Part shown: in pieces, positions 2,113 to 27,900 of the stretch | Layout: each line of letters opens with the position of its first letter | Numbering within the stretch: the first letter of the stretch is position 1 | Source of the DNA: an uncultured bacterium | GTDB lineage: Bacteria; Vulcanimicrobiota; JAJTBE01; CAYNGH01 | Assembly: GCA_964396845.1 (NCBI GenBank) | Contig: CAYNGH010000002.1 | Span: 17,760 to 81,759, forward strand | Direction: 5' to 3' | Length of the DNA: 64,000 nucleotides | Notes under the pieces: generated by a model | The model's input: only the letters and a program-made list of their open reading frames with translations | Database searches by the model: none | Told to the model about the DNA's origin: nothing | Translations under genes and position numbers: made by a program

Positions 2113-2127
2113 TCACCAACTGCAGAA

Positions 2128-2559: not shown

Positions 2560-2560
2560 C

Positions 2561-2974: not shown

Positions 2975-3008
2975 TCTAATCCCTCCTAAGAATTTCCCAC
3001 AAACGCGG

Positions 3009-3329: not shown

Positions 3330-3665
3330 CTGCTCACCCTCTAATCGGCATACCTGCTGGAGTTACTGGTTTTCCACTGCTGTCGTTATTTACAGAGTCA
3401 ACCATGGATCCTTTGTGTTAAATTGACCAGATAAGTCAAACCAATTGTTAATACTATGGCCTGTAGTCCAATAACAATCGAATACAGATCAATTTATCCC
3501 GAAATACCCTGTGTTGACACTTAAACCTAAAGGATTAGGAAAATCATACTAAAGTATTATTTAATCAAATTGGTTTTGGGCGAAGAACAGGTCTGCCGGT
3601 GTTATTGGAGGAGTTGTGAAGGATGCAGAAGAAAGATAAAAAAAACCGGGAAGGTTATTGACACA

Positions 3666-6600: not shown

Positions 6601-7289
6601 CCCACGACATTTTTACTCCCCTGACAGCCATGAAGGGGTATGTCACAACCCTTCTGCTTCATCAGGATCGTTTTGATGAAAACATGCAGAAGGAATTTAT
6701 GAGGGTCATCAACAGCGAAATTGATCGAATGACCCGGCTGTTATACAATCTTATGAGCCTGTCCCGGATGGAATCAGACAAACTGCAGGCTGTCCCCACC
6801 CCGCAAAGCCTTGAGGGACTGATTCAAAAAATCGTGGATCTCTACTCCCTGAGCGCAAGAAACCACGATATTGCATTAGATCCCTCCGTTGGGGAAATGC
6901 CCTCGGTTTATGCTGATCCCGACCAGGTGGAACAGATCCTGAGCAATCTTTTAAGCAACGCCATCAAGTATTCCCCCGGGGGTGGAAAAATCATAATTCG
7001 CGCCAGAGAAGAACAAGATGGAATGATAGCTGTATCAGTGAGGGATCATGGAATAGGTGTCGAGGAAAAGGACCTGGATCGGATTTTTGATCGTTACCAG
7101 CGGGTTATCACAAAGAAATCCAGGGCAGTATCAGGAATGGGGCTGGGGCTTTTCATAACAAAAGTACTCACGGAAATGCAGGGAGGAACTATATGGGCCG
7201 AAAGGTGCCATGACGGCGGGACCCTGTTCACCTTTACCCTGAGAAAATTCGGCCCTGACATATTTGATGACGATGAGGATGAAGAATGA
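3666..7289 (+). CDS. Multi-GAF / PAS sensor histidine kinase (HisKA + HATPase_c), acidic C-terminal tail
   Basis: ORF 3570..7289; preferred start ATG 3666 (MNINFDD, GGGAAGG SD). The Cys-rich 32-aa N-terminal extension is probably not translated. Several GAF-like segments, a coiled coil, a PAS segment (VVSIDWERKITAFNRAAVEITGYSEEEALG), an H-box (ISHDIFTPLTAMKGY) and N/G1/G2 boxes (LLSNAIKYS, RDHGIGV, GMGLGL). Confidence 0.85.
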   Translation: MNINFDDLSAEARTDKASLYLLICQKAMEAFSANSVFFIRASGDGELNVESSIGKDPEERLYKDALLPIVEKGVYENRAPMIVTDTSKDPRFLVHYKSELPGYSLLSFPIITRDMVTGILTLYRPPGKAFGSNSIGRIHKFSGWAGQLLERGLQLESFRHNQQKLDILSRLTRTISSVQELDKAAEFTSSIISEVLGVDCRVVFFKDDQDWNHLSQDIRRILARGVPSVTGRNNEGRQLVAPITYQELMPGYLEICGREVRDFTDLAKTVSILLGSTARRILLDEEIDSNRDKIEALEEIANYELSGVLSSSSDLDTILDSTQELIVHLLRVERVNVMLYDNTTETLKVAKYWGIDDRPFGREVLSIGEGLAGHALLTGKPQYKRSEPDGIFVESPQGQEEVRSLVSYPMIVEGRRVGVINVGSIYHDKIFDEQDIRIVSLIASRAALALENSYLAQEQKQLILEKTDNNKKLKEKNLQLTERGRRLSETTRKLQLSLKATERINTRLAQLNRLSNRIIGSRHPGYIMDSALEFTENLVPRHARVISLVTFTQDGGAEQVRIAQNVPGRYALFLRKFFNNMPQSLYRVLVQEKKSIILHDFRSHPDVEKLRLMQELRSFYCFPLFNNERTFGTLILGSTKEHLLDDEDIEFVSAMVNQVALSLDNADKYSEMRRRSDMLSQLNQLTGEIIFSREKGNRMDPLVEMTCKLMDQQFGILLLYNRWGQLEVNARYGRQDIFDEHLKNQEIQMIIEEVIRRRQIYYSSTDYEQLVKRYSLLARTGIKSLVILPLISKGNPIGAMLVSSDNPQAHTKTILEYYKLLASHLALTIDNALLMSRILLEKDRIDSVFESMKEGVVSIDWERKITAFNRAAVEITGYSEEEALGKFCHEIFRCKDTPGEKCVDVCPLMDLLNSMAQEPAAGRNEGKFKMKDGTWRDLMVTSSLLSQDGDPVGGVLVFRDITQEKAFQARRSDYLAAISHDIFTPLTAMKGYVTTLLLHQDRFDENMQKEFMRVINSEIDRMTRLLYNLMSLSRMESDKLQAVPTPQSLEGLIQKIVDLYSLSARNHDIALDPSVGEMPSVYADPDQVEQILSNLLSNAIKYSPGGGKIIIRAREEQDGMIAVSVRDHGIGVEEKDLDRIFDRYQRVITKKSRAVSGMGLGLFITKVLTEMQGGTIWAERCHDGGTLFTFTLRKFGPDIFDDDEDEE

Positions 7290-7312: not shown

Positions 7313-7750
7313 CTATTGAATTTTTCCCCGGAAGGTCTTTGATATGACCTTCTTTATCATCAAGGCAGCATCTATAGGCTTAAAGGGCTTCACGATAAAA
7401 TACTTGGCCCCGTTGACAATGGCTTCCTTGACCTTGTCCTGATAACCCAGGGAGCTTATCATGATGATTGTGGCATTGGGATCGATGGAAACAAGGTGTT
7501 TGACTGCTTCAACCCCGGTCATGTTGGGCATCACAATATCCAAAGTCACAATGTCGGGACGTGTTTTCTTATAAACCTCAATGGCCTGAAGGCCGTCTTC
7601 TGCTTCTCCCACCACCTCGCCCTTCATCAGTCGAACAACAATCTTCAGACTCCGCCGGATAAATTCAGAGTCATCCACAACCATGAATCGAAAAGGGGAG
7701 CCATCCTTCTTGAATATCTGCGCCTCGCTGTTAGAGGTATCAATAGTCAT
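7313..7750 (-). CDS. cheY: CheY-like single-domain response regulator
   Basis: 145 aa receiver domain (MVVDDSEFIRRSL..., DIVTLDIVMPNMTGVEAV..., conserved K in FIVKPF); last gene of the che operon. Confidence 0.8.
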   Translation of the reverse strand: MTIDTSNSEAQIFKKDGSPFRFMVVDDSEFIRRSLKIVVRLMKGEVVGEAEDGLQAIEVYKKTRPDIVTLDIVMPNMTGVEAVKHLVSIDPNATIIMISSLGYQDKVKEAIVNGAKYFIVKPFKPIDAALMIKKVISKTFRGKIQ

Positions 7751-7768
7751 TTCAACAATCTCCTCTCA

Positions 7769-8275
7769 TCAGTTTGCCTTTATTTTAAGAGCAATGTTCA
7801 CATTCAGATCCCCGTGGGGTGTGCTCAAGGGGATAATTATAGTATCAAGGGTCGAGTCGGTGGTCTGCATATCCTTACCGCATAAAAGCACCGGGGGAGT
7901 GATGTTGAACTTGCTTCCGCCGTCATTCAGGGTGGTTATGGCCTTGCCCACGATGATGTTGGCCAGTTCGTTGATGGTTGCCTTTGCAAGGCTGTTGAAG
8001 GAATCCAGCTCCTCATAATTCATGGCTCCGGCAATAGTCCTGGCAGATTCTTCGGACATATCCAGGATAAATCTCCCCTCAACCTCCCCGATAAGGCCGA
8101 TGATGACAGCCACTCCATTCATGGGAACCGGCGATTTCTTCATCACCGGCTTTCCCGGCGTTATAGGGCCTTCAAGCATCTCCTTGAGAACATCATAAGC
8201 GCCCTGGGCAAAGGGCTTGGCATATTTTTTTACCATTTGCATTCTCCCTTCATACAGTTTCCAGAATACCGGCAT
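7769..8275 (-). CDS. cheX: CheC/CheX-family chemotaxis phosphatase (CheX-like)
   Basis: 168 aa; has the CheC/CheX consensus E-x-x-N-I-x-x-G (INELANIIVGKA); size and single motif fit CheX. Alternative start at the second Met (8242) would reduce the overlap with the upstream gene. Confidence 0.65.
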   Translation of the reverse strand: MPVFWKLYEGRMQMVKKYAKPFAQGAYDVLKEMLEGPITPGKPVMKKSPVPMNGVAVIIGLIGEVEGRFILDMSEESARTIAGAMNYEELDSFNSLAKATINELANIIVGKAITTLNDGGSKFNITPPVLLCGKDMQTTDSTLDTIIIPLSTPHGDLNVNIALKIKAN

Positions 8276-10121
8276 TAGACTTGAAGAAGGACAGAGGATT
8301 GATCACCAGCACTACCCTGCCATCTCCCATAACTGTAGCGCCGATGACATAATCAGTGTCGAAGAAGAGATCGTCAAGCTTTTTTACCAGAACCTTGTCT
8401 TCTCCCAGAACGCCATCTACAAGGATTGCCGCGTACCTGTCACTGTCGGATATTATCACCGACATCCGTCCCGTTTCATCCCCATCAACGGGGTCAGATT
8501 CCATCATATCACCCTTCAGGCCCACCTCCATCAGAGTCACAACTCTGTCGGCATAACAGATCACTTTTTGTCTGTTCACAGTCTTGACCTGTCGGGATTT
8601 TAGTTTCAGAATCTTTTCGATGCAGGCCACCGGAACGGCAAATATGTTATCTCCCTTTTTAAAATAGATAACTTCAACCCTGGATGAATCGATGGGAACC
8701 TGAAAACTGCAGAGTCCCCGGTTTTGATTATTATGATACACATTCAGCCGGCCACTGATGGAATTGAGGATATTGTTCACATGATCTATTCCCTTGAAGC
8801 TGAATTTCTCATCATCGCATATTAGGGTAATTATAATATCAGAATCCCGGTATTGAGATAAAATCTTTATATTCAGCGATTCTTTTCCTGATGACAACCT
8901 CTGAATGATATCGGCGACAATATTATCCAGAACAATCTCAATGGCAACCGCCAGTTTTTTCCACATTTCAAGATCAATCTCAATGTCTGTTTCTTCTATA
9001 TTCAGTTTCACATCGGTATTGTGCTTCCGGGACAGGTCCCTGGCCAGCCTGTTGAAGCGGGCCAGTTCCTTGTTCAGTGACACCTTCCTTATGCTTATGA
9101 CTTTTTTTTCCAGCAAAAGGGTGAGTTTATCCATATTTCGAGAAAGCAGATTCAGTTTCTTTATAACAGGATGATATGGATTTGAACGGCTAATCTTGTC
9201 GATCAGGTTAATAAAATGAGATTTTCCCACAAACATTTCTTCAACCAGGCTCATCATCTCGTCAATATTGTGGATGGGAATCCTTACGAAGAAGTTTTCT
9301 TCTTCGCTTCTTTCTGGTTTCTCCGACATTGGTCTTTCTGTCGGGGCTTCATTGACATCAACGGCAGGCCCTATGGGTCTGTTTTCCTGTTTTCCTCGGC
9401 TTTCCTGAATGACAATGCCAATCTCTGTCATCATGGGAATTTCTGTAAGCTCCAGAACAGTATCAATATTTTCCCGTGGATCAAAAAGAATTAGGGTAAA
9501 GAAATCCACTTCCTCGATGGCAGGATCCTCTGGCGAGGGTTCAACCCAGGCCACATCACCAATCTCCTCAAGATTGGACACGACAAGAAATGCGCTGGAT
9601 GACTTCATCAGGCAATCAGAGTCAAAAGGCACCTTGATAACCAGAACGCTTCTGCCTTCTTCCATTCCTTTTCGTGCAGTTTCTTCAATATTGCGGGGCA
9701 TCGTCAGAGCTGTCGCTTCACAGCTTTGTCCTGTCTTTCCCGCCGGCGACTCTTTGAGGTTTTTCAGTAGTCCTGAATAATTTTTTGGCAATGGGCTGTT
9801 GGAAATTTCTGCGTGGGAGAGGGCTTTCAGGCAATCGGTAGCTTCAAAGAACAAATTGATTTGTTGAGAATCGCATTTTATTTTACCATTGCGTATCTGG
9901 TCAAGACGATCCTCCAGGGCATGGGCCAGCATATTGGTGGCATCCAGATTCATCATTCCCGCGGATCCCTTTAAGGTGTGCACCGGTCGAAATATTGAAT
10001 TTATTACCGCAGTGCTTGATGGATCTTTTTCAAGGATCAAGAGGTTGGAGTCGATGGCATCAAACAGCTCTTCGACCTCATCCTGGAAAGTCTGCATCAG
10101 CTCCATCATGTATGAGTCCAT
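8250..10121 (-). CDS. CheA-like protein with intact Hpt (P1) domain, dimerisation (P3)-like region, degenerate ATPase (P4)-like region and CheW-like P5
   Basis: P1 motif VHTLKGSAGMM with the phosphorylatable His. A P3-like segment (FVRIPIHNIDEMMSLVEEMFVGKSHF). Where N/G1/G2 boxes are expected the sequence reads IVLDNIVADII / ICDDEKFSF with no GxGxG. C-terminal CheW-like domain (IFAVPVACIEKI..., GDGRVVLVINP). Confidence 0.75.
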   Translation of the reverse strand: MDSYMMELMQTFQDEVEELFDAIDSNLLILEKDPSSTAVINSIFRPVHTLKGSAGMMNLDATNMLAHALEDRLDQIRNGKIKCDSQQINLFFEATDCLKALSHAEISNSPLPKNYSGLLKNLKESPAGKTGQSCEATALTMPRNIEETARKGMEEGRSVLVIKVPFDSDCLMKSSSAFLVVSNLEEIGDVAWVEPSPEDPAIEEVDFFTLILFDPRENIDTVLELTEIPMMTEIGIVIQESRGKQENRPIGPAVDVNEAPTERPMSEKPERSEEENFFVRIPIHNIDEMMSLVEEMFVGKSHFINLIDKISRSNPYHPVIKKLNLLSRNMDKLTLLLEKKVISIRKVSLNKELARFNRLARDLSRKHNTDVKLNIEETDIEIDLEMWKKLAVAIEIVLDNIVADIIQRLSSGKESLNIKILSQYRDSDIIITLICDDEKFSFKGIDHVNNILNSISGRLNVYHNNQNRGLCSFQVPIDSSRVEVIYFKKGDNIFAVPVACIEKILKLKSRQVKTVNRQKVICYADRVVTLMEVGLKGDMMESDPVDGDETGRMSVIISDSDRYAAILVDGVLGEDKVLVKKLDDLFFDTDYVIGATVMGDGRVVLVINPLSFFKSNAGILETV

Positions 10122-10231
10122 TCAAGTCCACCATTTTCACTATTTTTTTGCAATTATTGATGTTGTCGGGATCCTGATATCTCTCATCATAATAATCGGC
10201 CAAAAGAGCATCCATTAAAGACGGCTTTAAA

Positions 10232-12187
10232 TCATGATCCTGCGGATTTTACCATGTCCTGAAGATTTATAACCAGAACTACGCTTCCGTCGCCCTGAAT
10301 ACAAGCACCGGCAATTTCTCTGATATTTCTCAAATAATTACCTATGGTCTTGATGGCAATCTTCTGTTTGCCAACAATTTCATCAAAACCCACCGCCATT
10401 TTTCTGTTGAACCCATTTACTACCGCCACAAGAAACGTGCCATCTTCATGGTTTTCCTGGGGACTGATTTCCATCACATCACAAAGCTGTCTGAAGGGGA
10501 TTATGCTTCCGTTGTATGTAATAACCCTCTTGTGGAGTATCGGTTTTAGCTGTTCCTTTCTGATTTTCATGATTCTTTGAATTCCGTCGGTGGGTATGGC
10601 AAACATCTCACTGCCGGCCCGGACAATCAATGTATCAACCATCGAAAGGGAAAGAGGAAGTCGAATGCTGAAGGTTGTGCCTCTTCCCTTTTCTGTGTTG
10701 ATTTTTATGGTTCCGCCATGTTTTTTAATGCTGGTGCGAACTACATCCATTCCAACACCCCTGCCGGAAATTTCCGTAACTCGTTCTGCAGTGCTGAAGC
10801 CGGGCATAAATATGTAGTCGAGGATTTCCTGTTTTGACATGAACTGAGCCTTCTCCATGGACACAAGCCCTTTTTCCACGGCCTTGTTCCGAATAACATT
10901 GTGATCAATACCCCTGCCATTGTCTTCAATCTCAATCACCACTGAGTTGACATCGTTAAATGCCTTGAGCCATACGCTTCCAGCGGGGTTCTTGCCCTTT
11001 CTTCTTCTTTCATCAGGATAATCGACTCCGTGATCCACGGCGTTTCTGATAAGATGAACCAGGGGATCCTTCAGGCTTTCAAGAACAACCCGGTCAATTT
11101 CTGTGCTTTCTCCGATGATCCTCACGTTTATCTGTTTATCCTGTTCTGATGCCAGAGTTTCGATAACTTTTCTAAACTGCCGGAACAGTGATCTTATGGG
11201 CATCATTCGTAATGATAACAGCTGGTTGTAAAACTGTTCCGTCAGCTTTTCAAAGAGTATTGCCAATCCGTTCATTTCCTTGCCATATGCCGTCAGCATG
11301 CGATCCTGGGTAATCTCCTGCTTCAAGTTCAATATCTTCATTTTAAGGGTAATCATTTCCCCGATGCTGTTCATCAAGCCATCAACTTTTTTTATGTTCA
11401 CCTTCATATTTGACTGAAGTGGAGAATCGCCGATTTTACCCCTGCCATTGTCATTGCGATATTTCTCGCCATTGGTGCTCTCCTGGGCGGAAGAATCATC
11501 CCACTGATTCACAAACTCCCTGATTTCCCAAATCAATGTTTTTATTTCCTCAATTATTGATGTTATACCATGTCCATTCTCTCCTGCAATGATATCCTCA
11601 AGGTTGTTTTCGATCTTCTCTGCAGTCAGATTCAGACGTTCATGTCCGATGAAAAGTGTAGCTCCCTTAATGCCTTTCATGGCGCGCAATATATTGGCAA
11701 CCACGATTATATCCGATGAAGGAGTGAACATGGGAAGATATTCTTGAACTGTTTTAATATGTTGTTCGGCAACTTCCTGAAACAACTCCATCTGGCTTTT
11801 CGACTCATCCCTGCCTGGAATTTTGGCACCTGCCAAGTTGTCCTCCGCCGATTCTCTGGAAAGATTGTCGATTTTCTGTTTCAAGACAGCAATTGACATG
11901 ATCAGCTTGTCATACAGGCTCAATCCCTTGTCCTGGGTAGATTTTTTCATTTCAAGAACCAGCTCTCTGACCTGATCAATCTCTGTCATCAAGCCATCCC
12001 GTCCCAACATGAAAGCACCTTCATAAATACTCCCTAAAACCATGGAAAGCTCTTCTAACAACTTCTTATCCGATGGATCCCGGTTGAGCATTTTAATTAA
12101 AACATTGATCTCATCAACATGCCCCATGGACTCGTCCATAAAATCCTTGAGTATTTCCAGTTGTAATTTTCTTTGAAATTTAATCAT
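10232..12187 (-). CDS. cheA: CheA histidine kinase with complete catalytic (P4) and CheW-like (P5) domains but two Hpt-like domains lacking the phospho-accepting His
   Basis: N box HLIRNAVDHG, G1 IEDNGRGID, G2 GRGVGMDVV and a CheW-like C-terminus are present. The Hpt-like segments read LGSIYEGAFMLG and RAMKGIKGATLFIG, aligning to AAHSIKGGAGTFG with His replaced by Gly and Lys. Confidence 0.85.
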   Translation of the reverse strand: MIKFQRKLQLEILKDFMDESMGHVDEINVLIKMLNRDPSDKKLLEELSMVLGSIYEGAFMLGRDGLMTEIDQVRELVLEMKKSTQDKGLSLYDKLIMSIAVLKQKIDNLSRESAEDNLAGAKIPGRDESKSQMELFQEVAEQHIKTVQEYLPMFTPSSDIIVVANILRAMKGIKGATLFIGHERLNLTAEKIENNLEDIIAGENGHGITSIIEEIKTLIWEIREFVNQWDDSSAQESTNGEKYRNDNGRGKIGDSPLQSNMKVNIKKVDGLMNSIGEMITLKMKILNLKQEITQDRMLTAYGKEMNGLAILFEKLTEQFYNQLLSLRMMPIRSLFRQFRKVIETLASEQDKQINVRIIGESTEIDRVVLESLKDPLVHLIRNAVDHGVDYPDERRRKGKNPAGSVWLKAFNDVNSVVIEIEDNGRGIDHNVIRNKAVEKGLVSMEKAQFMSKQEILDYIFMPGFSTAERVTEISGRGVGMDVVRTSIKKHGGTIKINTEKGRGTTFSIRLPLSLSMVDTLIVRAGSEMFAIPTDGIQRIMKIRKEQLKPILHKRVITYNGSIIPFRQLCDVMEISPQENHEDGTFLVAVVNGFNRKMAVGFDEIVGKQKIAIKTIGNYLRNIREIAGACIQGDGSVVLVINLQDMVKSAGS

Positions 12188-12582
12188 TATGAAGCCTTTC
12201 TACCTCTGCTACCAGAAATCAACATCTCAATATATGCAAGCAGAGAATCAGGATTTGGAGGTTTTACCAAGTAAAGATCCGCTCCAAGACGGATGCCTTT
12301 CCGTTGATCTTCTTCATTGGCCTCGGTTGTAAGTATAATGATTGGCAAATACTGATAGGCCTTCTCTTTCCTGATTGATTTTATCAGTCTGTAGCCGTCC
12401 ATTTTTGGCATATTTATATCAGTAATCACAAGATCATAATTACTGCTGTAGATTTTTTCAAGTGCCGACAACCCATCATTGGCAGTGTCAACCTCATAAT
12501 TATTCAGCTTCAGGATATATGCCAGGATATCCCTGATTGTCCTGGAGTCATCCACCACGAGAATTGTTGCCATCAAACACAC
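12187..12582 (-). CDS. cheY: CheY-like response regulator
   Basis: 131 aa receiver domain (ILVVDDSRTIRDIL, DLVITDINMPKMDGY, YLVKP); 1-nt overlap with the downstream cheA start. Confidence 0.8.
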   Translation of the reverse strand: MCLMATILVVDDSRTIRDILAYILKLNNYEVDTANDGLSALEKIYSSNYDLVITDINMPKMDGYRLIKSIRKEKAYQYLPIIILTTEANEEDQRKGIRLGADLYLVKPPNPDSLLAYIEMLISGSRGRKAS

Positions 12583-12611
12583 CTCATAAAAATTGGTTTC
12601 TTGTATTGCTT

Positions 12612-13439
12612 TTATTGTTTCTGATAAATAATTCCGTTGCTAAAACGGCAAATTTTGAATGCTGTGCTAATTCTGCTCATAGACTCGGAATGTCCCAGAA
12701 AAATATGACCCTCGCTTCTGAGGCTGTTGTAAAGATGCCCCACCACCTGTCTGCGGGCTTTCTGGTCAAAGTAAATCAGAACATTTCTGCAAAAGACAAT
12801 ATCAATATTTCTAATATTTGCAGCCTGCTGGCTATCCATCAGGTTCAGATAAAAGAAACGAACCAGCTTCTTCAATCTGGGATCAACCTCATATGTGCCA
12901 TTGTTTCCAATGAAATATTTGGAAAGATAGTAGCTGTGGACTTCCTTGAGAGCCCTGGCAGAATACTTGCCCTTCCTTGCAGTATCAAGGACCTGATGAT
13001 TGATGTCACTGGCCAGAACCTGAATGTTCCAACCATCGGTGTCCGGGAGGTTCTCCAGTATATTAATGGCTATGGAATAAGGTTCTTCTCCGGTGGAACA
13101 AGCTGCGCTCCATATTTTGAGGGTCTTGCTGTTCTGTTGCTTTTTTTCCAGAATCAGCCTCGGCAATAACTCTTCTCCCAATATCTTCATCTGTGCAATG
13201 TTTCGGAAGAAGTATGTTTCATTTGTTGTTATTATTTCAATAAGCCTGTTGACCTCATTTCCCCGCATGTCAAGACGGAGAAGGCGGTAATAATCCTTAA
13301 GGGTTTCACAGTTTAATTCTTCCATTCGACGGGCCAGTCGTCGGCCCAGCATATACTTCTTGCTGGGGGAGAAGAATATGCCGGTCTTGTCATAAATAAA
13401 ATCCCGAAACAATCTGAAGTCATCCGGATTGAGATTCAT
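12612..13439 (-). CDS. cheR: Chemotaxis protein methyltransferase CheR
   Basis: 275 aa; CheR N-terminal helical domain plus SAM-dependent MTase motifs (KIWSAACSTGEEPYSIAI, VLASDIN..., IVFCRNVLIYFD). Confidence 0.9.
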   Translation of the reverse strand: MNLNPDDFRLFRDFIYDKTGIFFSPSKKYMLGRRLARRMEELNCETLKDYYRLLRLDMRGNEVNRLIEIITTNETYFFRNIAQMKILGEELLPRLILEKKQQNSKTLKIWSAACSTGEEPYSIAINILENLPDTDGWNIQVLASDINHQVLDTARKGKYSARALKEVHSYYLSKYFIGNNGTYEVDPRLKKLVRFFYLNLMDSQQAANIRNIDIVFCRNVLIYFDQKARRQVVGHLYNSLRSEGHIFLGHSESMSRISTAFKICRFSNGIIYQKQ

Positions 13440-15376
13440 TCTGCATCACCATCCTCTCCCAGGACGCCAAGAATCATCCGGGCGGTGCTTTGAACCTCGT
13501 AATCCCTGGAATATAGCATTCTTCTGATGGCTTCCATACCCTGACTTCCACCGATTCTCTGGAGTCCTTCCAGGGCGGCCACCTGAACAATTGATGAAGA
13601 TTCAACATCAAGACACTGGTTGAGCACTTCGACACAACGGGGATCCTTCAAATTACCAATGCCCCGGACGGTTTCATATCTCACCCAGACATCATTATCA
13701 CCCAGCAATGGAACCAGGTAATCCAGTGCATCGGGAGGCGCCAGCCGACACAGAACATTAATCGCCTTCATCCTGACTTCGTTGTGTTCGTCATTCAAAA
13801 CAGGTATTAAATATTCCACAGGCAGGGGGCCCGGCATTCTTGAGAGAACTGCTATGGCATATTTTCGAACCTGCCAGTTGCTGTCATTTAATGCGATGAT
13901 GATGTCATCAAGATATTCCGCCGAAAGAAAAGCATGGGTCAATCCATAGGCTGCGGTGGATCGGACTTTTTCATCCAAATCATGAAGAAGCGACACAAGC
14001 TTCCGGTTCACGTGGCTTCCGCCAATTTTAGAGAGGGCTTCAGCAGCTTCAAATCTCACGTCTTCATACTCATCCCGCATTAATTCAAACAGATCCTCCA
14101 GGGCCTCACAAATTTTCATATCACCCATGGCCTTTGCCGATGCCCTTCGGACGTGCCCCAGAGAATCATGCAGTAGCGGAATAAGACGGCCTTTAATCGA
14201 CTCAGCACCGATTTCTGTCAGGGCATTCAATGCCTCCAGCCTGATATCGTCATCCTGGGAATCCAGAACAGACAGGAGAAAGGGGATTGGCAACTTTGAC
14301 GAGGATTGACCAAGAACCCTTATGAAATACCCGGGATTCTTGGTTTTACTAAAGTTGAACTGTTTTAAAATCGACCTGACACACTCTTCACCAGGCTTAT
14401 TAAAAATCTCCCGGATTATCCCAGGAAGCTCATCTCTGGACATGGCAAAACTGACCACGGGGTCAATCAGCTCATCTGGCCCCATCAATGACAGAATGTA
14501 TGCCGACATGCCACTGATGTCCCGATCCTTGCTTTCCAGGTTTGACAAGATGATTGAGATGTTGTTGTGCAGGTGATCCAGGCTGTCCCGGTCAAATTCT
14601 AACTGAAACCGGCGACATATATTTCCCACTGCAAAGATGATGTAGGAATCCACCAGGCCCTTTTCCTTGCCCAGCCTAACTATCAGCAGTTTTACAGTGT
14701 CCATGTTCCCTATTCGAGAAAGCTTTTTTAGCACAGCCAGGGACACTGCAGCACTTCCTTCATCAAGAACATCAAGTAGAACGGGAATAATGCCGGGATC
14801 ATCAATATTTGACAAAGCTTCGATTGCAAAAATTTTCACCCACGGGTCTTTTTCCTGTTGAATCTTCTTAATCACCGGCTGGACTTTCCGGGGATCATTT
14901 ATTTTACTCAGGCTTTCCAGAGCTGCTGTGCACACATTAATATCCCCATCTTTCAGAAGCGGAATCAAATGTTCAACACTGTTTCCACTGCCGATATCCC
15001 CGAGAATATTTATTGCAAACTTCCTGACATCACTGTCCCTGTCATAAATTAAAGGAGTAACCCCAGGCAGGGCAGATTCTCCAATCTGACCCAGGATTGC
15101 AATGGCATCGTTTCTCAACCTGACATCACTGTCACGAAGGTATTCCACAAGAAGAGCAATAACCTGAGGATCCTCTGTCGCCGACAATGTATCAATTAAT
15201 ACCTCCCGTGAGCCTCCCCGGACATGACGAAGTTGATCAACAAGTTTTGAATATTCTTCTTGTTTAGTTTCACCAACAGGCTTATTATCAAACACCTGTG
15301 AACTTTTCCGGTCATGATAGTCCGATTCCCGTATGACTTTTTCTGTTTTTGTACCTTTCAACCTCAACACTTCCAA
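13436..15376 (-). CDS. HEAT-repeat (PBS-lyase-type) protein embedded in the che operon
   Basis: 646 aa made almost entirely of ~30-aa repeats of the form D-x-D/N-x-x-VR-x-x-A-x-x-AL-x-x-IG; stop codon overlaps the cheR ATG (ATGA). Confidence 0.7.
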   Translation of the reverse strand: MEVLRLKGTKTEKVIRESDYHDRKSSQVFDNKPVGETKQEEYSKLVDQLRHVRGGSREVLIDTLSATEDPQVIALLVEYLRDSDVRLRNDAIAILGQIGESALPGVTPLIYDRDSDVRKFAINILGDIGSGNSVEHLIPLLKDGDINVCTAALESLSKINDPRKVQPVIKKIQQEKDPWVKIFAIEALSNIDDPGIIPVLLDVLDEGSAAVSLAVLKKLSRIGNMDTVKLLIVRLGKEKGLVDSYIIFAVGNICRRFQLEFDRDSLDHLHNNISIILSNLESKDRDISGMSAYILSLMGPDELIDPVVSFAMSRDELPGIIREIFNKPGEECVRSILKQFNFSKTKNPGYFIRVLGQSSSKLPIPFLLSVLDSQDDDIRLEALNALTEIGAESIKGRLIPLLHDSLGHVRRASAKAMGDMKICEALEDLFELMRDEYEDVRFEAAEALSKIGGSHVNRKLVSLLHDLDEKVRSTAAYGLTHAFLSAEYLDDIIIALNDSNWQVRKYAIAVLSRMPGPLPVEYLIPVLNDEHNEVRMKAINVLCRLAPPDALDYLVPLLGDNDVWVRYETVRGIGNLKDPRCVEVLNQCLDVESSSIVQVAALEGLQRIGGSQGMEAIRRMLYSRDYEVQSTARMILGVLGEDGDAE

Positions 15377-15393
15377 TCTGAGCTCTGAGGGGA

Positions 15394-16458
15394 TTAAATT
15401 TTTAGCAATGACACAAGAATTTCTGTAACTTGACTGTCGGGAACAATTATGTCCGCAAGACCTGATTCAATAACAGACCTGGGCATTCCATAAACAGTGC
15501 ATGTGCTGGAATCCTCAGCTATGGTAAGACCTCCTGATTTGCGGATTTCCCGCATACCCCGGGTGCCGTCACTGCCCATTCCAGTCATTATGATTCCCAC
15601 TGTATCGCTTCCATACACCTTTGCCACCGATTCCATCATGATGTCCACCGAAGGCCGATAAATCACATCTTCAGGAAATCGACTCAGGCGGATCACCACT
15701 CCCTTGGAAAGTGATGTGGTAACTGCTGTCAGATGTTGATCCCCCGGGGCAATATAACACACGGAACGTCTGACTCTCTCGCCATTTCTGGCTTCCTTCA
15801 CATTTATCCCACAGATGCTGTCAAGCCTGTTGGCCAGGGAGCTGGTGAACCCCGCAGGCATATGCTGGGTCAAAAATATCGGCGCTGGAAAATCAGCAGG
15901 AATCATCGGAAGAATCTCAAGAAGCTTTCTGGGCCCTCCGGTAGATATGCCAAGAGCAATGGCAGGGTTGATAAAATGCCTTTTGAATGCATTCATGTTC
16001 CCAGTTTCGGCAACAGGCTCTCTATAAATCGTTACACTCCCTGATTTCAAAGGCTTCTTCCTTCTTCTCAAGGCAGCAGAACGAATCTTGATAATCAGAT
16101 CCCTTCGAAAATTATCAACATCCTGTCGATTCGACATAAAAGGCTTGGTGATAAAATCAGAATGCTCATCAAGTGATGTCTTCAAGTCAAGCTCTGCTTC
16201 CTGCCTTGACATTGAACCGATGAAAATCACCGGAATCCTTAACACCTGCCGAAGCTGTTCGATAATACTCCTTCCGTTGTTCCTGAAAAGCTCCATATCC
16301 AAAGTCATCACATCAGGATTGAGGGACGCAGCCTTTTCAAGAGCCTCATCGCCGTCCCCTGCAAGACCTGCAACAACAATCCGGCGATCGCTTTCCAGAA
16401 GCCTCTTGATCCGTTTGCGAATCATTTTGGATTCATCAACAACAACAACAGATATCAT
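15394..16458 (-). CDS. cheB: Chemotaxis response regulator protein-glutamate methylesterase CheB
   Basis: 354 aa; N-terminal receiver, C-terminal methylesterase with ALGISTGGP, TGMGSDG and AEDSSTCTVYGMP motifs. Confidence 0.9.
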   Translation of the reverse strand: MISVVVVDESKMIRKRIKRLLESDRRIVVAGLAGDGDEALEKAASLNPDVMTLDMELFRNNGRSIIEQLRQVLRIPVIFIGSMSRQEAELDLKTSLDEHSDFITKPFMSNRQDVDNFRRDLIIKIRSAALRRRKKPLKSGSVTIYREPVAETGNMNAFKRHFINPAIALGISTGGPRKLLEILPMIPADFPAPIFLTQHMPAGFTSSLANRLDSICGINVKEARNGERVRRSVCYIAPGDQHLTAVTTSLSKGVVIRLSRFPEDVIYRPSVDIMMESVAKVYGSDTVGIIMTGMGSDGTRGMREIRKSGGLTIAEDSSTCTVYGMPRSVIESGLADIIVPDSQVTEILVSLLKI

Positions 16459-16507
16459 CTATCATCACCGGGTTCCGTCAACTTTTAGCCAAGAGGTAAA
16501 CAAAAAA

Positions 16508-18460
16508 TCAACTGGCCTTCCCTTCATCGGCACTGTCTGGCTCCAGACATGTCAGCTCATCATCCAGACAGGAAACACCGCCGAGATTTGTTCCACTCAA
16601 GTCTTCAACAGTATTCAAATCCTCCGGGGACTGTTGGATATTATCCCCTCCCGAAGAATCATCAATCTCACCAATCTTATCAATCTCATCAATCTCATCA
16701 TCGTCATCAGAACCCATTTGAGCCAGCAACTGCTCCTGCAATGCTCTCAACTGCTCCTCCTCAGACAGCTCGATAGTGGAAAAATCTGTCTTCCCTTCAT
16801 CTGATCCAGATAAAGAATCATCACGGGAATCTGAATCCACCACAGGCAATAAATCATCAGCAACCTTCTCTTCCAAGCCGACTTCCCATAAATCATCCTC
16901 GGCACCAGGGGCATCGGAATTCTTATGGACAACATCAATTGCTGAATCATCATCAATAACATCCTGGGGCGATTCCTGTTGCAGGTTTAATATGCCGGCC
17001 ACATTTAAAATTATAACAAACCGCTGACCGCCATTCATTTTTCCAATTCCTTCGATAAACGAAGCATCGATTTCTGAGATTATCTCCGGGGCAGATTCAA
17101 TGCTGTCGGCGGTCAACTGAATCACTTCAGAAACCGAGTCAACTATCAAGCCGGAAACCCGGTTCTGACAGGTCACCACAACAATGCGATCGGAACCGCT
17201 GGGTTCTTTCCAATCAAGCCCGAATCTGCTGCGAAGATCAATCACCGGCAGAACATCTCCCCGCAGGTTGACCACACCCCGGACATAATCTGGTGAGCCT
17301 GGCACTGCAGTTATATCAGTCAGGCGGATTATTTCCCGGACATTTCTGATATCAACACCAAATTCTTCATTGCCAAGCCTTAAGCTGACCATCTGCCTGA
17401 TTTCCAATGAACCTCTCTCCTTTGCCGGATGCCGGTTGGCCCCGACTGCATCCGCTGATTTTTCATCAATCCCGGAAATATCCGAACTGCAGGTGATACT
17501 ATCTGAATCAAGAATCAAAACAAGCCGGTTTCCGCCCTCAAGCTTTCCTATTCCCTGAAGCCTGCCATCCAGGGCAACAGTTTCCGGCGGATCCTCAATC
17601 CGATCCCTGGGAATACTGACCACCTCATTGACCATATCCACCAGAACCCCCGACAGAACTCTTTCGCCATTCACATCCCGGCGAAGGATGAGAATCCGGG
17701 ATCGCTTGTCTATGGGCGACTCTGTCATGCAAAAATAACTGCAAAGATTAATAACAGGCATCACCTTTCCCCGGATGCTTATGATACCGGAGATAAATCC
17801 CGGAGCCTCAGGAACTCTGGTAATCCGGGGAATCTTGATAATCTCCTCCACCTTGTTGATATCAACGGCATACTCCTCGGCCCCCAGCTGAAAACTGACC
17901 ATCTGAACATCATGATTCAATCCTGCCGACTCCGAATCGTCAACGCCGTCAATCCCTGCCGGATAATCAAAAGAAGAATCCATATCATCGGAAACATCAT
18001 CTATTCTGGTTATTGTATCGAGATTTAATATGGAAATTAATCGCTGGCCGGATTTGTGTTTGCAAATCCCCTTCAGACTGCCGGAGCCTGACTGGTATAG
18101 TGACGGGGGAGGCAGTTCGACTTCCCCGGAATTAATCCTGAGGACTTCGGAAACCGAATCCACAACCAGGCCCACTGGGGTATCGTCATAACTTGTCACC
18201 ACAACCCGGTTGGAAGGCCCATGGTGAATCTCCTCCATGTTCAGGCGTTTCCTGGTGTCAATGATTGGCAGGATCTGTCCCCGGAGATTGACAACCCCCT
18301 CCAGATAATGAGGAGCCCTGGGCACCATAGTTATGCCCGGCAACTTGATAATCTCCTGAACATTTCCAATCTCAATGCCGTATTCTTCTCCACCAAGACG
18401 AAATGTTACAAGCTGTTCAATGTTTCTATTTTCTGACAGAGCCGGGGACATATGAACCAT
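16508..18460 (-). CDS. Triple CheW-domain coupling protein with acidic C-terminal tail
   Basis: 650 aa; three successive CheW-like domains (each containing LRG-x-xxPVIDLR-like and GxxVDxVxEV motifs) followed by a D/E-rich tail (DDDDEIDEIDKIGEIDD...). Confidence 0.8.
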   Translation of the reverse strand: MVHMSPALSENRNIEQLVTFRLGGEEYGIEIGNVQEIIKLPGITMVPRAPHYLEGVVNLRGQILPIIDTRKRLNMEEIHHGPSNRVVVTSYDDTPVGLVVDSVSEVLRINSGEVELPPPSLYQSGSGSLKGICKHKSGQRLISILNLDTITRIDDVSDDMDSSFDYPAGIDGVDDSESAGLNHDVQMVSFQLGAEEYAVDINKVEEIIKIPRITRVPEAPGFISGIISIRGKVMPVINLCSYFCMTESPIDKRSRILILRRDVNGERVLSGVLVDMVNEVVSIPRDRIEDPPETVALDGRLQGIGKLEGGNRLVLILDSDSITCSSDISGIDEKSADAVGANRHPAKERGSLEIRQMVSLRLGNEEFGVDIRNVREIIRLTDITAVPGSPDYVRGVVNLRGDVLPVIDLRSRFGLDWKEPSGSDRIVVVTCQNRVSGLIVDSVSEVIQLTADSIESAPEIISEIDASFIEGIGKMNGGQRFVIILNVAGILNLQQESPQDVIDDDSAIDVVHKNSDAPGAEDDLWEVGLEEKVADDLLPVVDSDSRDDSLSGSDEGKTDFSTIELSEEEQLRALQEQLLAQMGSDDDDEIDEIDKIGEIDDSSGGDNIQQSPEDLNTVEDLSGTNLGGVSCLDDELTCLEPDSADEGKAS

Positions 18461-18479
18461 CCTTTTTTGCGGGGGCTTC

Positions 18480-20429
18480 TCAGATGGCCTGAAGCTCTTC
18501 TGCCATAAAAGAAATCTCCTCGGCTGCCCTGGCCAGCTCTTCGATTCCCAGGGCCTGTTCCTCCGAGGCCAGAGCCACTTTTGAACCGGCAGCCGATGCC
18601 TGCTCTGACTCGGACTTTACTTCCCTGGCTGCTTCCACTCCCTGGCTGGTGTCTTCCAGCTGGTCATCAAAAAGCATTATAAGCTTGTCAACTATCTCTA
18701 TGGCCTCACTGGCAGCGTTTAGTATATTTTCCGCTTCACTGTGAATCTCATCACCCCGGCGGGCTTCCACCTCCGCCTGATTTCCCGCCTTTTCCACATC
18801 ATCTCCCACCACGGCAATCTGATCCCGGATATTTCTCACCAGATCCTTGATTTTCTCTGCAGAATGGGAAGATTCATTGGCCAGGTTCTTTACATCAGCT
18901 GCCACCACGGAAAAGCCCTTGCCATATTCACCGGCCCGGGCTGCCTCAATGGCACCGTTGAGGGCCAGAAGGTTGGTCTGAATGGCAATGTTGACAATGG
19001 CATCAACAATCTTGCTGATTTTCTTGGCCTTGTTTCCAAGGGCCACCAGTTCCTTGGCAGAACTCATGTTGGAAGCTGCAGCCTCGTTGATACCTTCCAC
19101 CACAACAGCAATGCGACTCCTGGCTTCAGAATATTCCTCCACCAGCTCATCAAAGCCGTTTCGAATCCCCTGGGATACATCTTTGACCATCTCAGTGCTC
19201 ACCTGGGCTTCCAGGGCTGCCTGTCGCAAATTTTCTGCCCCTTCGGCAGCCTGACCGGTGCCATGGGCAATTTCGCTTATGGCGTTCTTAATCTCCTGGG
19301 CAGCGCTGTTGGATTCCTGAATAGTGGCGGATATTTCCTCCGCGGCGGCTCCCACCTCGTTAGCTGTTTCCAGGGTAGATTCATTCTCATGAAGCTCATC
19401 GGCAATAGCTGAAAGCTCGCTGGTGGCAATCTTGATTTCCTCCAGGGCACGGCTCTGCTCCTTGATGGAATTCACCGACTGATTGGTGGCCGCGGCGGTC
19501 TGTTCTGAGGCTGCTGCAATCTGCTCTGCGCTGTTCAAAAAGTTTTCCAGAGTCACCAACTGTTCCGTTGCCAGTCTTCCCACCTGTTGGGCCTGATCCA
19601 CAATATCCCTGGCAATCTGACCGCAACGTTCCATGGTTTCCCCCACCTCCCGGGCCCTGACAACAACCCCGGAGGCAGAATTCCCGGCGCCTTCTATTTT
19701 TTCTGATACAATCCGTATATCTTCCTGCACTGACCGGGCAACCTGGCTGATCTCCCTGGCAGCGTTTTCGGCATTTTCCGCCAGGTTTCGAACCTCGTCA
19801 GCCACCACCGCAAAACCACGGCCATGCTCCCCGGCCCGGGCAGCCTCGATGGCAGCATTCAAGGCTAAAAGGTTGGTCTGATCTGCAATTTCCACCACCG
19901 ACTGGACTATACTGCCTATCTCATCTCCCTGGAGAATCAGGTCCGCAGCGCTTCTCACCGCTTCAACATTCACCTCGGCAAAGGAATTGATCCCCTCGAT
20001 GGCAGTGTTGATCTTGTCCAGGGAGTTCCGCAAAAGAGATGCCAGGCTGTCAACATTTCGCACTACATTCTCCGAATCTCTGGATGCCTGTTTGGACCTG
20101 CCGTCGGCCTTCTGAGCGATTTTCTTTGCCTTTTCCGCAGTGGCACTGGCAACCTCAACATTGTGGGCCAGCTTCTCTCCCGAGGCAATTATCTCATTGG
20201 ATGACGCGGCAACCCTCTCCACTCCCGATGCAAGCTGTGATGTGGCATCGGCAAGCTGCTGGGCTACCTGCTGGCGCATTTGTGCTTCTTTTTGTTTCTT
20301 CATGGCCAGCTTTCGAAGGGTATCCTTTCGATCAACCTTGTCAATAAACGACATTCTCGGCACCGATGCAACCGATGCAACACCCCTGGAACCGCCATTC
20401 CCTTCTCTTTTACCCAGTACACGAGCCAT
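18480..20429 (-). CDS. Soluble methyl-accepting chemotaxis protein with two tandem signalling (MA) domains
   Basis: 649 aa with no obvious TM segment. The highly conserved MCP tip motif appears twice ([35 protein letters not shown] and [36 protein letters not shown]), each flanked by heptad-rich coiled coil. Confidence 0.85.
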
Positions 20430-20697
20430 AAGGTTACCTCCATCATGTTTCTATAAGGTAAATCGGCCTGAATGGACAATCTGTTTAGAATAATAATCAA
20501 AAATCAGACTAAAGTATTATGACATAATCGGTATTATTTAGTCATAGAGGGCACATGCTCAACAAAAAGAAATATCCCCTGATAAACAGGAGAATCAAAA
20601 CATACCAGTGCTGGATCAGTCAGGATATTACTGCGGTTGCCCTTCCGGGACAGGGTTTTTCATGCCTCCGGAAACACTGCCATCCACAGGGCCTGGT

Positions 20698-21996
20698 TCA
20701 GTTTTTCCCAGAAAGAAAGATATCCTCAAAACCCGAGATCGCTTCCAACTCATCGGGGGAGGCTTTCTTTCTGAACAGGTTCAGATCATTCCTGAAGCTC
20801 AGAGGATCCCCAAGATAATAATGAACCAGTCCCCTGGTGGCCAACAGCAGATGATTATCGGGAGTTTTTTTGATGGCGGTATTTATCAGGTTCAGAGCTT
20901 TTTCTCTGTTATTCAGCAGGGAGTACATGACTGCGTAATCTGCCATCTGCTCTGATGTTTCAGGGGGTTTTGGGTTAGCCTCCTGCCAGATTAGAGCCTC
21001 GGCCCGGGCCTGTTCTTCCCTGCCTATTTCTGCCAGAAAGCTGACATGACTCAGGATGAACCCGGTGTTTTCCGGGTTGCATTCACGGGCAGTCCGATAA
21101 TATTTATCTGCGACATCAAATTCTCTTCTGTCCCGGTGGATGGCTCCCAGGATGTTATTCAGGTTTCCCCTCATTTCTGGGCCGATGTCGTCAACCTGTT
21201 TCAACTGAGGATCAATTTTCAGGTAATTCTTATATTCACGCCAGGCCTTTTCTGTCTGGTCGGTGTCCATGTATATTTCCATCAGCCTCAGGTAGCCATG
21301 GGGCTTGAAAAAACCCTGCTCAACCACCATCTTTGCAGTTTTTTCCGCCATGGGGGGGTTTGTGTGGAACAAGCTGTAAGTGCTCACCAGCAGAATTTTT
21401 GATTTCTCTTCTGGTGTAGGATTCAGGGCCTCAGCTCGTCGGAGCGTTTCCAGGGACTGGTCATATTTTCCCACTTCAGAAAAAGCCCTGGCCAGCTCAA
21501 CGGTGGTGTGAACGCTCAGGGGATCCGCCCGGTTTGCCTTGATCCTGTCGGAAAGACATGCCTCCAGATCCCCGGTGGCCCGGTAAGCGCTGGCCCGGTA
21601 AAGCAATCCGTTGACATTATCCGGCTGAACCTCAAGGAGTTCATTGGAGTGTTTAAAAACCTGCTCCCACTCCTCATGGATAGCAAAAACCCTGATTATA
21701 CCTTCCCTGGCTTCGATGTTTTCCGGGTCAATTCTTAAAACCTGCCGGTAAAAATCCATGGCTTCGTCAGGCTTTCTGTCCTGAGCAAGACATTGTTCTG
21801 CTTCATGAAGCAGACGATTCACCTGGGCTCTTGCTTCATCAGATAACTGGGTGTCAGATGACAATGAATGACTGCCGAGAGTACCAGACCTGTCACATGC
21901 AGGCAATATCATCAATAAAAGACACAGGAAAACAAAAGATGCGATTAAACTTTTTTTATTGTCAGACCCTCGAAGGGATCCCCCACAAACTGGCAT
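20698..21996 (-). CDS. TPR-repeat lipoprotein
   Basis: 432 aa; signal peptide with lipobox (LLMILPAC), multiple TPR-like repeats. Confidence 0.7.
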   Translation of the reverse strand: MPVCGGSLRGSDNKKSLIASFVFLCLLLMILPACDRSGTLGSHSLSSDTQLSDEARAQVNRLLHEAEQCLAQDRKPDEAMDFYRQVLRIDPENIEAREGIIRVFAIHEEWEQVFKHSNELLEVQPDNVNGLLYRASAYRATGDLEACLSDRIKANRADPLSVHTTVELARAFSEVGKYDQSLETLRRAEALNPTPEEKSKILLVSTYSLFHTNPPMAEKTAKMVVEQGFFKPHGYLRLMEIYMDTDQTEKAWREYKNYLKIDPQLKQVDDIGPEMRGNLNNILGAIHRDRREFDVADKYYRTARECNPENTGFILSHVSFLAEIGREEQARAEALIWQEANPKPPETSEQMADYAVMYSLLNNREKALNLINTAIKKTPDNHLLLATRGLVHYYLGDPLSFRNDLNLFRKKASPDELEAISGFEDIFLSGKN

Positions 21997-22002
21997 ATCA
22001 CC

Positions 22003-23307: not shown

Positions 23308-23530
23308 CCCCACTCCTCCATAAGGCAATAATTTCACAGCACCTCTGATTATAACAAAAAATCCACAGAATGGGAAGGTTTTTCTGAATCAATGCATCAA
23401 GACACCATGAAAGCAGAGAAAGACGGTCTAAAATGAAAATGCCTCTTCTTGCAGGGATAATTGTTTATAAAATTAATAATAATCATATAATTAATCAGGA
23501 TTGCGATTTTAACTGAGAAGGCGGTATATT

Positions 23531-27839: not shown

Positions 27840-27900
27840 AACAAGGACCCCGGCCCCGTAAGGTCACCCTATGCAGGGCCGGTCTGTCAAGTTGTTCGAA

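Follow-up and report, generated by a model that had tools for sequence, protein, structure and literature searches.

A class F9 chemosensory cluster with two complementary CheA proteins in an uncultured Vulcanimicrobiota bacterium

We analyzed a 64,000-nucleotide stretch of DNA from an uncultured bacterium of the Vulcanimicrobiota (assembly GCA_964396845.1, contig CAYNGH010000002.1, positions 17,760 to 81,759; hereafter the ‘window’). Positions 7313-20429 of the window hold ten consecutive minus-strand open reading frames (ORFs), all with intact frames in the ORF listing, which encode a chemosensory (che) gene cluster in the order DosM, CheW3, CheB, HEAT-repeat protein, CheR, CheY1, CheA-K, CheA-H, CheX, and CheY2. 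Judged by its sequence, the locus belongs to chemosensory class F9, a known class; what is new is its kinase arrangement, a variant of the known ‘split CheA’ idea and not a new pathway class. The two CheA genes carry complementary defects: CheA-K has an intact ATP-binding domain and no phospho-accepting histidine, and CheA-H has the histidine and no ATP-binding site. We assign a probability of about 0.6 to the reading that an F9 array would work through this pair by phosphorylation in trans, with CheA-H, CheX, and CheY2 as a separate module and with a flagellar output. A preliminary description of the window, made from its letters without database searches, had named the same ten minus-strand genes, their positions, and their order; the ORF listing and Pfam, which identified all ten products, bear this out.

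The two CheA proteins

CheA-K (10232-12187, minus strand) consists of the P3, P4, and P5 domains preceded by two P1-like domains, and matches Pfam HATPase_c, the CheW-like P5, and the dimerization domain. Its residues 260-645 align with Thermotoga maritima CheA (1b3q/3ja6) at an E-value of ~1e-86 (phmmer), and the N (HLIRNAVDHG), G1 (DNGRGID), F (PGFST), and G2 (GRGVGMD) boxes are all intact. The defect lies in the first 255 residues. Alignment of the two P1-like domains to two-Hpt F9 CheAs (Desulfonatronum, ‘Ca. Anammoxibacter’) places Gly52 (first domain) and Lys171 (second domain) where the phospho-accepting histidine would be. A P1 hidden Markov model (HMM) matches the protein weakly at 15-67 and 140-206, with Pfam Hpt below threshold. 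The P1 histidine in an H-[ST]-[LIVM]-K-G motif that characterizes a canonical CheA is missing, and CheA-K has the makeup of the kinase subunit of a split CheA, namely one without a phosphorylatable P1. The preliminary description had proposed a kinase split into two polypeptides, one of them ‘kinase-only’; the functional division stands, while ‘kinase-only’ overlooks the two degenerate, His-less P1-like domains that CheA-K retains.

The loss of the histidine is shared by a small family. We found 13 His-less CheA-K relatives (34-66% identity, no Pfam Hpt match) in which the first histidine position is occupied by G, E, D, S, or R and the second by K or Q, and in which the second pseudo-P1 keeps the motif R..QGIKGA..FI.H. 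The P1 histidine is kept in the F9 CheAs of Sphaerotilus, Novosphingobium, and Desulfonatronum, and in the first of two P1 domains in that of Paenibacillus. All inspected clusters with a His-less CheA-K also encode a two-tip DosM, a CheW-domain protein of ~600-650 residues (complete genes), and a protein of ~610-640 residues in the slot of the HEAT-repeat protein.

CheA-H (8250-10121, minus strand) has the reverse defect. Pfam recognizes Hpt, P2, and CheW domains but no HATPase_c, and the layout is P1, P2, P3, a remnant P4, and P5, with the P1 histidine, His48, intact in FRPVHTLKGSAG. Within P4, the N box has degenerated beyond recognition and ~45-50 residues carrying the F box, the ATP lid, and the G2 box are deleted, so that the full set of N, G1, F, and G2 boxes that marks the ATP-binding P4 of a canonical CheA is absent. 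Aligned to the CheAs of Escherichia coli and T. maritima, CheA-H skips chain residues 421-474 and 161-214, respectively; the E. coli match covers P1 through the first half of P4, then resumes at the end of P4 and continues through P5. The protein also matches the CheA_Halo model at positions 3-448. An AlphaFold2 (AF2) model shows five modules, among which the remnant P4 (349-476) is compact, with a predicted local distance difference test (pLDDT) score of 70-89. The label ‘Hpt-only’ previously given to this gene is functionally apt and architecturally wrong, CheA-H being a full-length CheA minus its ATP-binding site. Its best ordinary relatives are compact CheAs that bear P2. We considered whether CheA-K and CheA-H might be recent duplicates that degenerated in complementary ways; their identity of 22% over P3-P5 rules this out.

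A database search with CheA-H returned only nine proteins of its architecture (38-100% identity), followed by ordinary CheAs at ~22%, and the P4 deletion is common to all 11 sequences that cover the deletion point. When a CheA-H profile was run against 1.84 billion representative sequences, six of the 150 best-scoring matched in one stretch; four of these (P0124, P0122, P0372, and P0373) cross the deletion point, and two are fragments. The remaining listed matches among the best 150 are broken into two or more stretches, many at or near the deletion point. In both new members that the profile search contributed, the P4 deletion is accompanied by the P1 histidine. Among 185,579 species-representative genomes, searches with the CheA-H alignment or its invariant peptide LKGSAGMM found only ordinary CheAs (from Thermoleophilia and others) with their kinase boxes intact.

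The two rare proteins occur together wherever enough sequence is available. Their genes adjoin in the window and in a syntenic contig, L005 (62-66% identity), and a single 7.6-Mb contig carries a CheA-H-CheX-CheY unit at 3.15 Mb and, 0.2 Mb away at 3.37 Mb, an F9 cluster whose CheA-K is His-less. A third CheA-K/CheA-H pair is connected by a shared sequencing run, SRR17235527. The pairs have diverged from that of the window in parallel (66/63, 43/40, and 44/39% identity), and no other Hpt-bearing ORF is found in the window or in the clade loci examined. On this sequence evidence, the His-less and ATP-site-less states are conserved features of small, rare, co-occurring clades, not decay.

The CheA-H, CheX, and CheY2 module

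CheA-H is followed by two small genes. CheX (7769-8236, minus strand), a phosphatase for phosphorylated CheY (CheY-P), matches Pfam CheX at an E-value of 1e-17 as well as CheC, and has the E-x2-N motif. Its ORF is open to 8275. Since homologues, which start 13-135 nucleotides after CheA-H, are only 153-155 residues long, translation probably begins at M14 (8236), which would make the 26-nucleotide overlap with CheA-H an artefact of ORF calling. CheY2 (7313-7750, minus strand) is a single-domain receiver (Pfam Response_reg, E-value 2e-24) with an intact active site; its best NCBIfam match, CheY_Halo (E-value 3e-30), is below the cutoff. An identical CheY2 sequence stands on a JGI/IMG record, and a 145-residue member of the same 90% cluster on the L005 contig.

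The order CheA-H, CheX, CheY is kept in all six CheA-H loci, and in four of the six the trio lies apart from the F9 cluster. The simplest reading of this arrangement is that CheA-H, CheX, and CheY2 are a separately inherited module for phosphotransfer and output that serves the His-less F9 kinase and that has come to sit beside the F9 unit in the lineage of the window.

Class F9 identity of the cluster

In the literature, the signature of class F9 is DosM together with a triple-CheW protein (CheW3), and the consensus order [DosM W3 B. R Y A. Y M/X] is listed for 72 species including Vibrio cholerae (S6 Table). F9 is present in ~2% of complete genomes. The window follows the consensus DosM-W3-B-x-R-Y-A, and its first seven genes (DosM, CheW3, CheB, HEAT, CheR, CheY1, and CheA-K) are the standard F9 set. 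Similarly, the neighborhoods of DosM homologues repeat the series of receptor, multi-CheW protein, (CheD), CheB, HEAT or unannotated protein, CheR, CheY, and CheA. The suggestion that the combination did not correspond to any described pathway class is accordingly not supported, as F9 already accounts for DosM, CheW3, the HEAT protein, and the gene order. The comparison with V. cholerae cluster I turned out to be more than an analogy, the two belonging to the same class by the published criteria.

DosM (18480-20429, minus strand) is a soluble chemoreceptor of 649 residues in which Pfam MCPsignal occurs twice and which lacks a transmembrane segment and a sensor domain. The two hairpin tips (EAARAGE) begin at residues 195 and 495, and the halves are 31% identical to each other (E-value 1e-31). 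The AF2 model is all-helical, with a mean pLDDT of 87.8 and a single break at 349-352, and one half aligns structurally with the complete cytoplasmic domain of TM1143, a 44H receptor of T. maritima (2ch7_B), over 301 columns with a TMt of 0.72. Four methylation-consensus sites are present, with Glu/Gln pairs conserved in 28 homologues, making DosM a plausible substrate of the CheR and CheB of the cluster. Homologues of ~647 residues are numerous in Bacillota, Desulfobacterota, Bdellovibrionia, and uncultured phyla. A scan of a genome collection using DosM as the sole query retrieved nothing. Both tips matched the pattern in seven of eight related loci (L001, L002, L003, L007, L008, L009, and L038), and in all of these, as in the window, the distance from tip to tip is 299-300 residues. 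The set covers four phyla and ranges from Betaproteobacteria to Bacillota; such unusually strict spacing fits a structural ruler. A GGAGG Shine-Dalgarno sequence precedes the ATG of DosM at 20429.

No transmembrane helix was found in any of the ten che proteins: no 19-residue Kyte-Doolittle window exceeds 1.5, and the maximum for DosM is 1.32, in agreement with the earlier claim that the cluster has no transmembrane receptor. Only two hairpin-tip motifs of methyl-accepting chemotaxis proteins (MCPs) occur in the 64 kb, both within DosM, and by this tip-motif scan no further receptor is encoded in the window. In the literature, 98% of DosM homologues are without sensors, and F9 arrays require additional receptors for input. 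The preliminary description had called the system ‘self-contained’, which is doubtful: DosM is sensorless, no other receptor is encoded in the window, and F9 arrays are described as recruiting further receptors. The soluble receptor with two signaling domains and the trivalent coupler, also proposed there, are both supported.

CheW3 (16508-18460, minus strand) contains three CheW domains, matched by Pfam in three stretches (E-value 2e-107), and ends in an acidic tail of ~150 residues (residues 498-650; 16508-16966, minus strand) with 32% Asp+Glu, 5% Lys+Arg, and no domain match. In tblastn comparisons with plasmid-borne F9 CheW3 proteins, the matching part ends at query residue 403-495 and leaves out the tail, which may be specific to the clade. 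CheB (15394-16458, minus strand) is a methylesterase with an N-terminal receiver (Pfam CheB_methylest and Response_reg) that scores 338 bits against NCBIfam PRK00742 (cutoff 293). CheR (12612-13439, minus strand) matches Pfam CheR_N and CheR. CheY1 (12187-12582, minus strand) is a single-domain receiver (Response_reg, E-value 4e-31) with all active-site residues (DD, D55, T, K) in place, and occupies the location of the F9 ‘Y’ between cheR and cheA.

The gene between cheB and cheR (13436-15376, minus strand) encodes a HEAT-repeat protein of 646 residues matched by Pfam HEAT_2 in seven stretches (E-value 2e-72). HEAT proteins occupy the same slot elsewhere, with 220 residues in Desulfonatronum and 208 in Sphaerotilus, where the gene is annotated as such. 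In BLASTP, the window protein matches the Sphaerotilus protein at an E-value of 1e-15 and the Desulfonatronum protein at 3e-11, with best segments 57-191 and 80-195. Residues ~57-250 are thus the counterpart of the short F9 HEAT protein (~210-220 residues), and the rest consists of further HEAT repeats, which by sequence are a clade-specific extension amounting to about a threefold enlargement. Slot proteins of 609-643 residues occur in L001, L005, L007, and L008; HEAT matches are recorded for three of them and not for that of L001. A HEAT gene between cheB and cheR is recurrent in F9 without being a formal criterion, and some F9 clusters have none.

Promoter-like motifs and transcription units

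The distances between successive genes from DosM to CheY2 are 19, 49, 17, -4, 29, -1, 110, -26, and 18 nucleotides. A promoter-like site of the sigma-28 (FliA) type, TAAACAGATTGTCCATTCAGGCCGATTT (20460-20487, minus strand), ends 30 nucleotides 5' of the DosM start and is the sole match to TAAA-N14-16-GCCGAT in the 64 kb (0.34 expected). A looser sigma-28-like site, TTAATGGATGCTCTTTTGGCCGATTA (10193-10218, minus strand), lies in the 110-nucleotide gap between CheA-K and CheA-H and is a candidate internal promoter. Similar sites are found upstream of DosM in L007 and L008, and the CheA-H site has equivalents in L005 and before the stand-alone CheA-H genes of L004, L036, and L037. Counted over the clade, the looser pattern, which was chosen post hoc, after the sequences had been viewed, occurs in eight of ten regions upstream of DosM or CheA-H (background 0.019 per 250 nucleotides).

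The sites suggest two transcription units of seven and three genes under the flagellar sigma factor. This agrees with the presence of flagellar genes beside the F9 cluster in the window, L001, L005, and L008. The single operon assumed at first is in doubt: the 110-nucleotide gap 5' of CheA-H holds a promoter-like motif conserved in relatives.

A sigma-28 site before fliE (GCCGATTA) was also considered and rejected, as it lies 13 nucleotides from the ATG and has no -35 element. The octamer GCCGATWW occurs 25 times in the window. Dinucleotide-preserving shuffles predict 7.5 ± 2.9 copies, and none of 100 shuffles reaches 25. The copies are mostly intragenic, and codon or dipeptide bias may be behind the excess.

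Proposed mechanism and alternatives

In general terms, the pathway that we propose can be rationalized into four steps. (i) Assembly: DosM rods, with a tip at each end, would combine with CheW3 and the CheA P5 domains into a two-layered cytoplasmic array, by homology with V. cholerae cluster I. (ii) Input and adaptation: other soluble receptors encoded elsewhere would provide the input, DosM being sensorless, and CheR and CheB would adapt the array through the conserved Glu/Gln sites of DosM. (iii) Phosphotransfer: CheA-K would phosphorylate His48 of CheA-H in trans, either in a P3-mediated heterodimer or between neighbors in the lattice, and phosphorylated CheA-H would use its P2 to pass the phosphoryl group on to CheY2, with CheY1 and CheB as probable further recipients. 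(iv) Output and reset: CheX would strip the phosphoryl group from CheY-P, resetting the signal, and the sigma-28-like motifs on both units would point to control of flagellar motility. The trans-phosphorylation step is inferred from the complementary defects of the two CheAs and from the Rhodobacter sphaeroides CheA4/CheA3 precedent, and a CheA-K/CheA-H heterodimer is possible because CheA-H keeps P3.

A more specific version of the same proposal, to which we give even odds, is that an obligate two-gene CheA has become fixed in a small clade as a hybrid of two chemosensory lineages joined by trans-phosphorylation, possibly through a P3 heterodimer within a double-layered cytoplasmic array. CheA-H, an unrelated CheA, would then supply the sole histidine and the P2 dock and would form the output branch jointly with CheX and CheY, and the conserved His-less P1 domains of CheA-K would possibly be decoys or regulators.

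Several observations weigh against phosphorylation in trans within an F9 array. With only 22% identity over P3-P5, a heterodimer of CheA-K and CheA-H is not obvious. The core of CheA-K (BLAST, P3-P5) is 27-35% identical to F9 CheAs and 35-40% identical to non-F9 CheAs, so that the F9 assignment rests on DosM, CheW3, and the gene order. The promoter evidence is suggestive only, because the pattern was defined with the sequences in view. The support as a whole comes from sequence and genomic context, the organism being known from metagenome assemblies alone and viewed here through a 64-kb window, so that other che classes and receptors are possible elsewhere in its genome. The databases also hold several His-less CheA-Ks with no CheA-H partner, for instance in the L001 Vulcanimicrobiota metagenome-assembled genome (MAG); such partnerless proteins may reflect MAG incompleteness or a different phospho-acceptor. 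Finally, in four of the six CheA-H loci the module shows no linkage to the F9 cluster, and it could therefore serve another kinase.

This last point leads to the strongest alternative, which we nevertheless regard as unlikely: that CheA-H, CheX, and CheY2 are an accessory of another chemotaxis system (e.g., F1-type) and not the partner of CheA-K. CheA-H would be a kinase-dead partner or substrate of a complete CheA, a phosphate sink, or a phosphatase scaffold, and CheA-K would use another acceptor. Such a role would suit a three-gene unit that mostly stands alone, that has its own promoter-like motif and a 110-nucleotide gap before it in the window, and whose CheA-H has the P2 that the compared F9 CheAs (Desulfonatronum and the His-less clade) lack; F9 systems are, moreover, nearly always accompanied by other chemosensory classes, and the His-less CheA-Ks without a known CheA-H partner are easily accommodated. 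It leaves CheA-K, however, without a histidine of its own in loci that hold no other Hpt ORF. Nor does it account well for the co-occurrence of two rare defects wherever enough sequence is available, for the adjacency that the two genes acquired in two genomes, or for the parallel divergence of two very small clades.

The nature of the output is a partly independent question. CheY1-P might act on the large HEAT protein and control stress, development, or metabolism instead of the flagellum. The HEAT protein is a conserved F9 component that has tripled in size in this clade, and in Myxococcus xanthus Che7 the CheY7 protein binds the HEAT-repeat protein Cpc7. Along the same lines, V. cholerae shows no chemotaxis phenotype when its F9 CheA is deleted, and it expresses F9 under stress. 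A non-flagellar output is still doubtful, somewhat more so than the accessory role, in view of the sigma-28-like motifs before both units, the flagellar genes that the cluster adjoins in the window, L001, L005, and L008, the 97% of F9-bearing species that are flagellated, and the CheX and CheY pair typical of motility pathways. The HEAT-output and flagellar readings can both hold.

That the two-domain MCP, split kinase, triple CheW, and HEAT protein make up an undescribed pathway class is very improbable: every structural component does depart from the E. coli paradigm, but three of the four features (DosM, CheW3, and the HEAT protein) belong to F9, as does the gene order, and split CheAs are also known. 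We dismiss the idea that the two CheA genes are decaying remnants of a system that is dead or run by a kinase elsewhere, for although both carry lesions that would be null in E. coli, the ten reading frames are intact, the lesions are conserved at 34-66% identity together with the surrounding motifs and the P1, P2, P3, and P5 domains, and the remnant P4 is predicted by AF2 to fold.

Boundaries and neighboring genes

The che cluster is bounded on its 5' side by a terminator-like hairpin (20575-20593, minus strand) located 3' of an upstream TPR gene. The 268-nucleotide intergenic region 5' of DosM contains the Shine-Dalgarno sequence described above, a good one. Directly upstream, with the hairpin between, are two TPR proteins of 432 and 444 residues (20698-23337, minus strand), and beyond them lies a divergent gene for an ankyrin-repeat protein of 541 residues (23531-25156, plus strand). 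The flanks of L006 and L007 likewise hold ankyrin and TPR/Ser-Thr-kinase proteins.

The downstream limit is set by a convergent gene for a histidine kinase of 1239 residues with four GAF domains and a PAS domain (3570-7289, plus strand). L005 has the same GAF-PAS kinase (1227 residues) in the same position, and a functional link to the che cluster may exist. Beyond the kinase are flagellar basal-body genes (508-3329, minus strand), comprising fliE (3009-3329), two ORFs of rod-protein size, and fliF (508-2112).

Elsewhere in the window, ORFs of 333, 363, 533, 363, and 368 residues (26838-30630, minus strand, and 41969-44355) have no Pfam match at E-values of 1e-3 or 1e-5 and below. Rfam and tRNA scans of the 64 kb found nothing. 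The nearest named relatives of individual genes come from MAGs labeled ‘Vulcanimicrobiota bacterium’ and ‘Firmicutes bacterium’.

Significance and comparison with known systems

F9 is widespread and forms a striking cytoplasmic array, and the separation of kinase and phospho-acceptor into two proteins offers a natural dissection of the pathway, in which ATP use can be manipulated independently of phosphotransfer and docking. Conservation of P1 domains that have no histidine prompts the question of P1 roles beyond phosphate carriage. There is also a consequence for annotation: both genes are called ‘chemotaxis protein CheA’ or left unnamed, and to judge from their sequences neither would work alone. 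A literature search did not find ‘pseudokinase’ used as a term for CheA.

The closest known system is V. cholerae cluster I (DosM VC1403, triple CheW VC1402, CheA VC1397). By its published description, it shares with the window the sensorless two-domain soluble receptor, CheW3, and the order DosM-W3-B-x-R-Y-A followed by a further CheY. The F9 proteins of V. cholerae, the only ones for which this has been shown, form a two-layered cytoplasmic array in which DosM bridges two CheA/CheW base plates (PMC7534058). Compared with the F9 CheAs that could be read, the window differs in that CheA-K has lost both histidines and a second, ATP-site-less CheA has been added, and its HEAT protein has ~640 residues against ~210 in other F9 clusters. 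The gene after cheA is CheA-H in the window, whereas in proteobacterial F9 clusters it is a small ORF of ~80 residues. We considered whether that gene might encode an Hpt protein, in which case a divided kinase would be common to F9 as a whole, and rejected this, given an ORF of only ~80 residues and ordinary F9 CheAs that keep their histidine. The small proteins themselves (16181-16417 in L038; 14244-14507 in L039) share the motif ..H.LH.AV.QVLLALRP.. and are absent from the window cluster.

Within class F9, Paenibacillus naphthalenovorans (L003) has a separate Hpt and P2 protein of 483 residues (14660-16111) beside its CheA (17433-19679). In this CheA the second P1 has Gln at the histidine position and the first keeps its histidine, unlike CheA-K. 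The Hpt protein lacks P3, P5, and any remnant of P4, is encoded between cheB and cheY, and falls outside the CheA-H family. L003 looks like an independent, partial split in a cultured organism, and could be an experimentally tractable comparison. More remotely, Che7 of M. xanthus, compared by cluster content, likewise has a HEAT-repeat protein and single-domain CheYs, but no DosM or CheW3.

Phosphorylation between CheA subunits has an E. coli counterpart. In CheA heterodimers, a His-less subunit (CheA-S or His48 mutants) with a good P4 can phosphorylate P1 on a partner with a dead P4. This complementation is a laboratory or isoform effect within one gene, whereas the window would have an obligatory pair encoded by distant genes (22% identity).

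The functional parallel is nearest in R. sphaeroides, where CheA4 phosphorylates CheA3 in a cytoplasmic receptor cluster. Split CheAs were counted in 11 of 481 cases, and the split design has been proposed to give ultrasensitive responses. As in the window, an ATP-binding kinase without a phospho-acceptor is combined with a P1- and P5-bearing partner in a cytoplasmic cluster, and a phosphatase is tied to the P1-bearing partner, as an internal domain in CheA3 and as the separate CheX in the window. The proteins are nonetheless built differently: CheA4 has neither P1 nor P2, while CheA-K retains two P1-like domains, both of them His-less, and CheA3 is without P3 and P4, whereas CheA-H keeps P2, P3, and a folded P4 remnant and so differs from an acceptor of the CheA3 type. 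The R. sphaeroides receptors (TlpT, 36H, with a single signaling domain) and couplers are also of a different type. The resemblance to CheA4/CheA3 is functional, between different protein families, and an ATP-site-less CheA would be a second, architecturally distinct ‘split CheA’ solution beside that of Rhodobacter.

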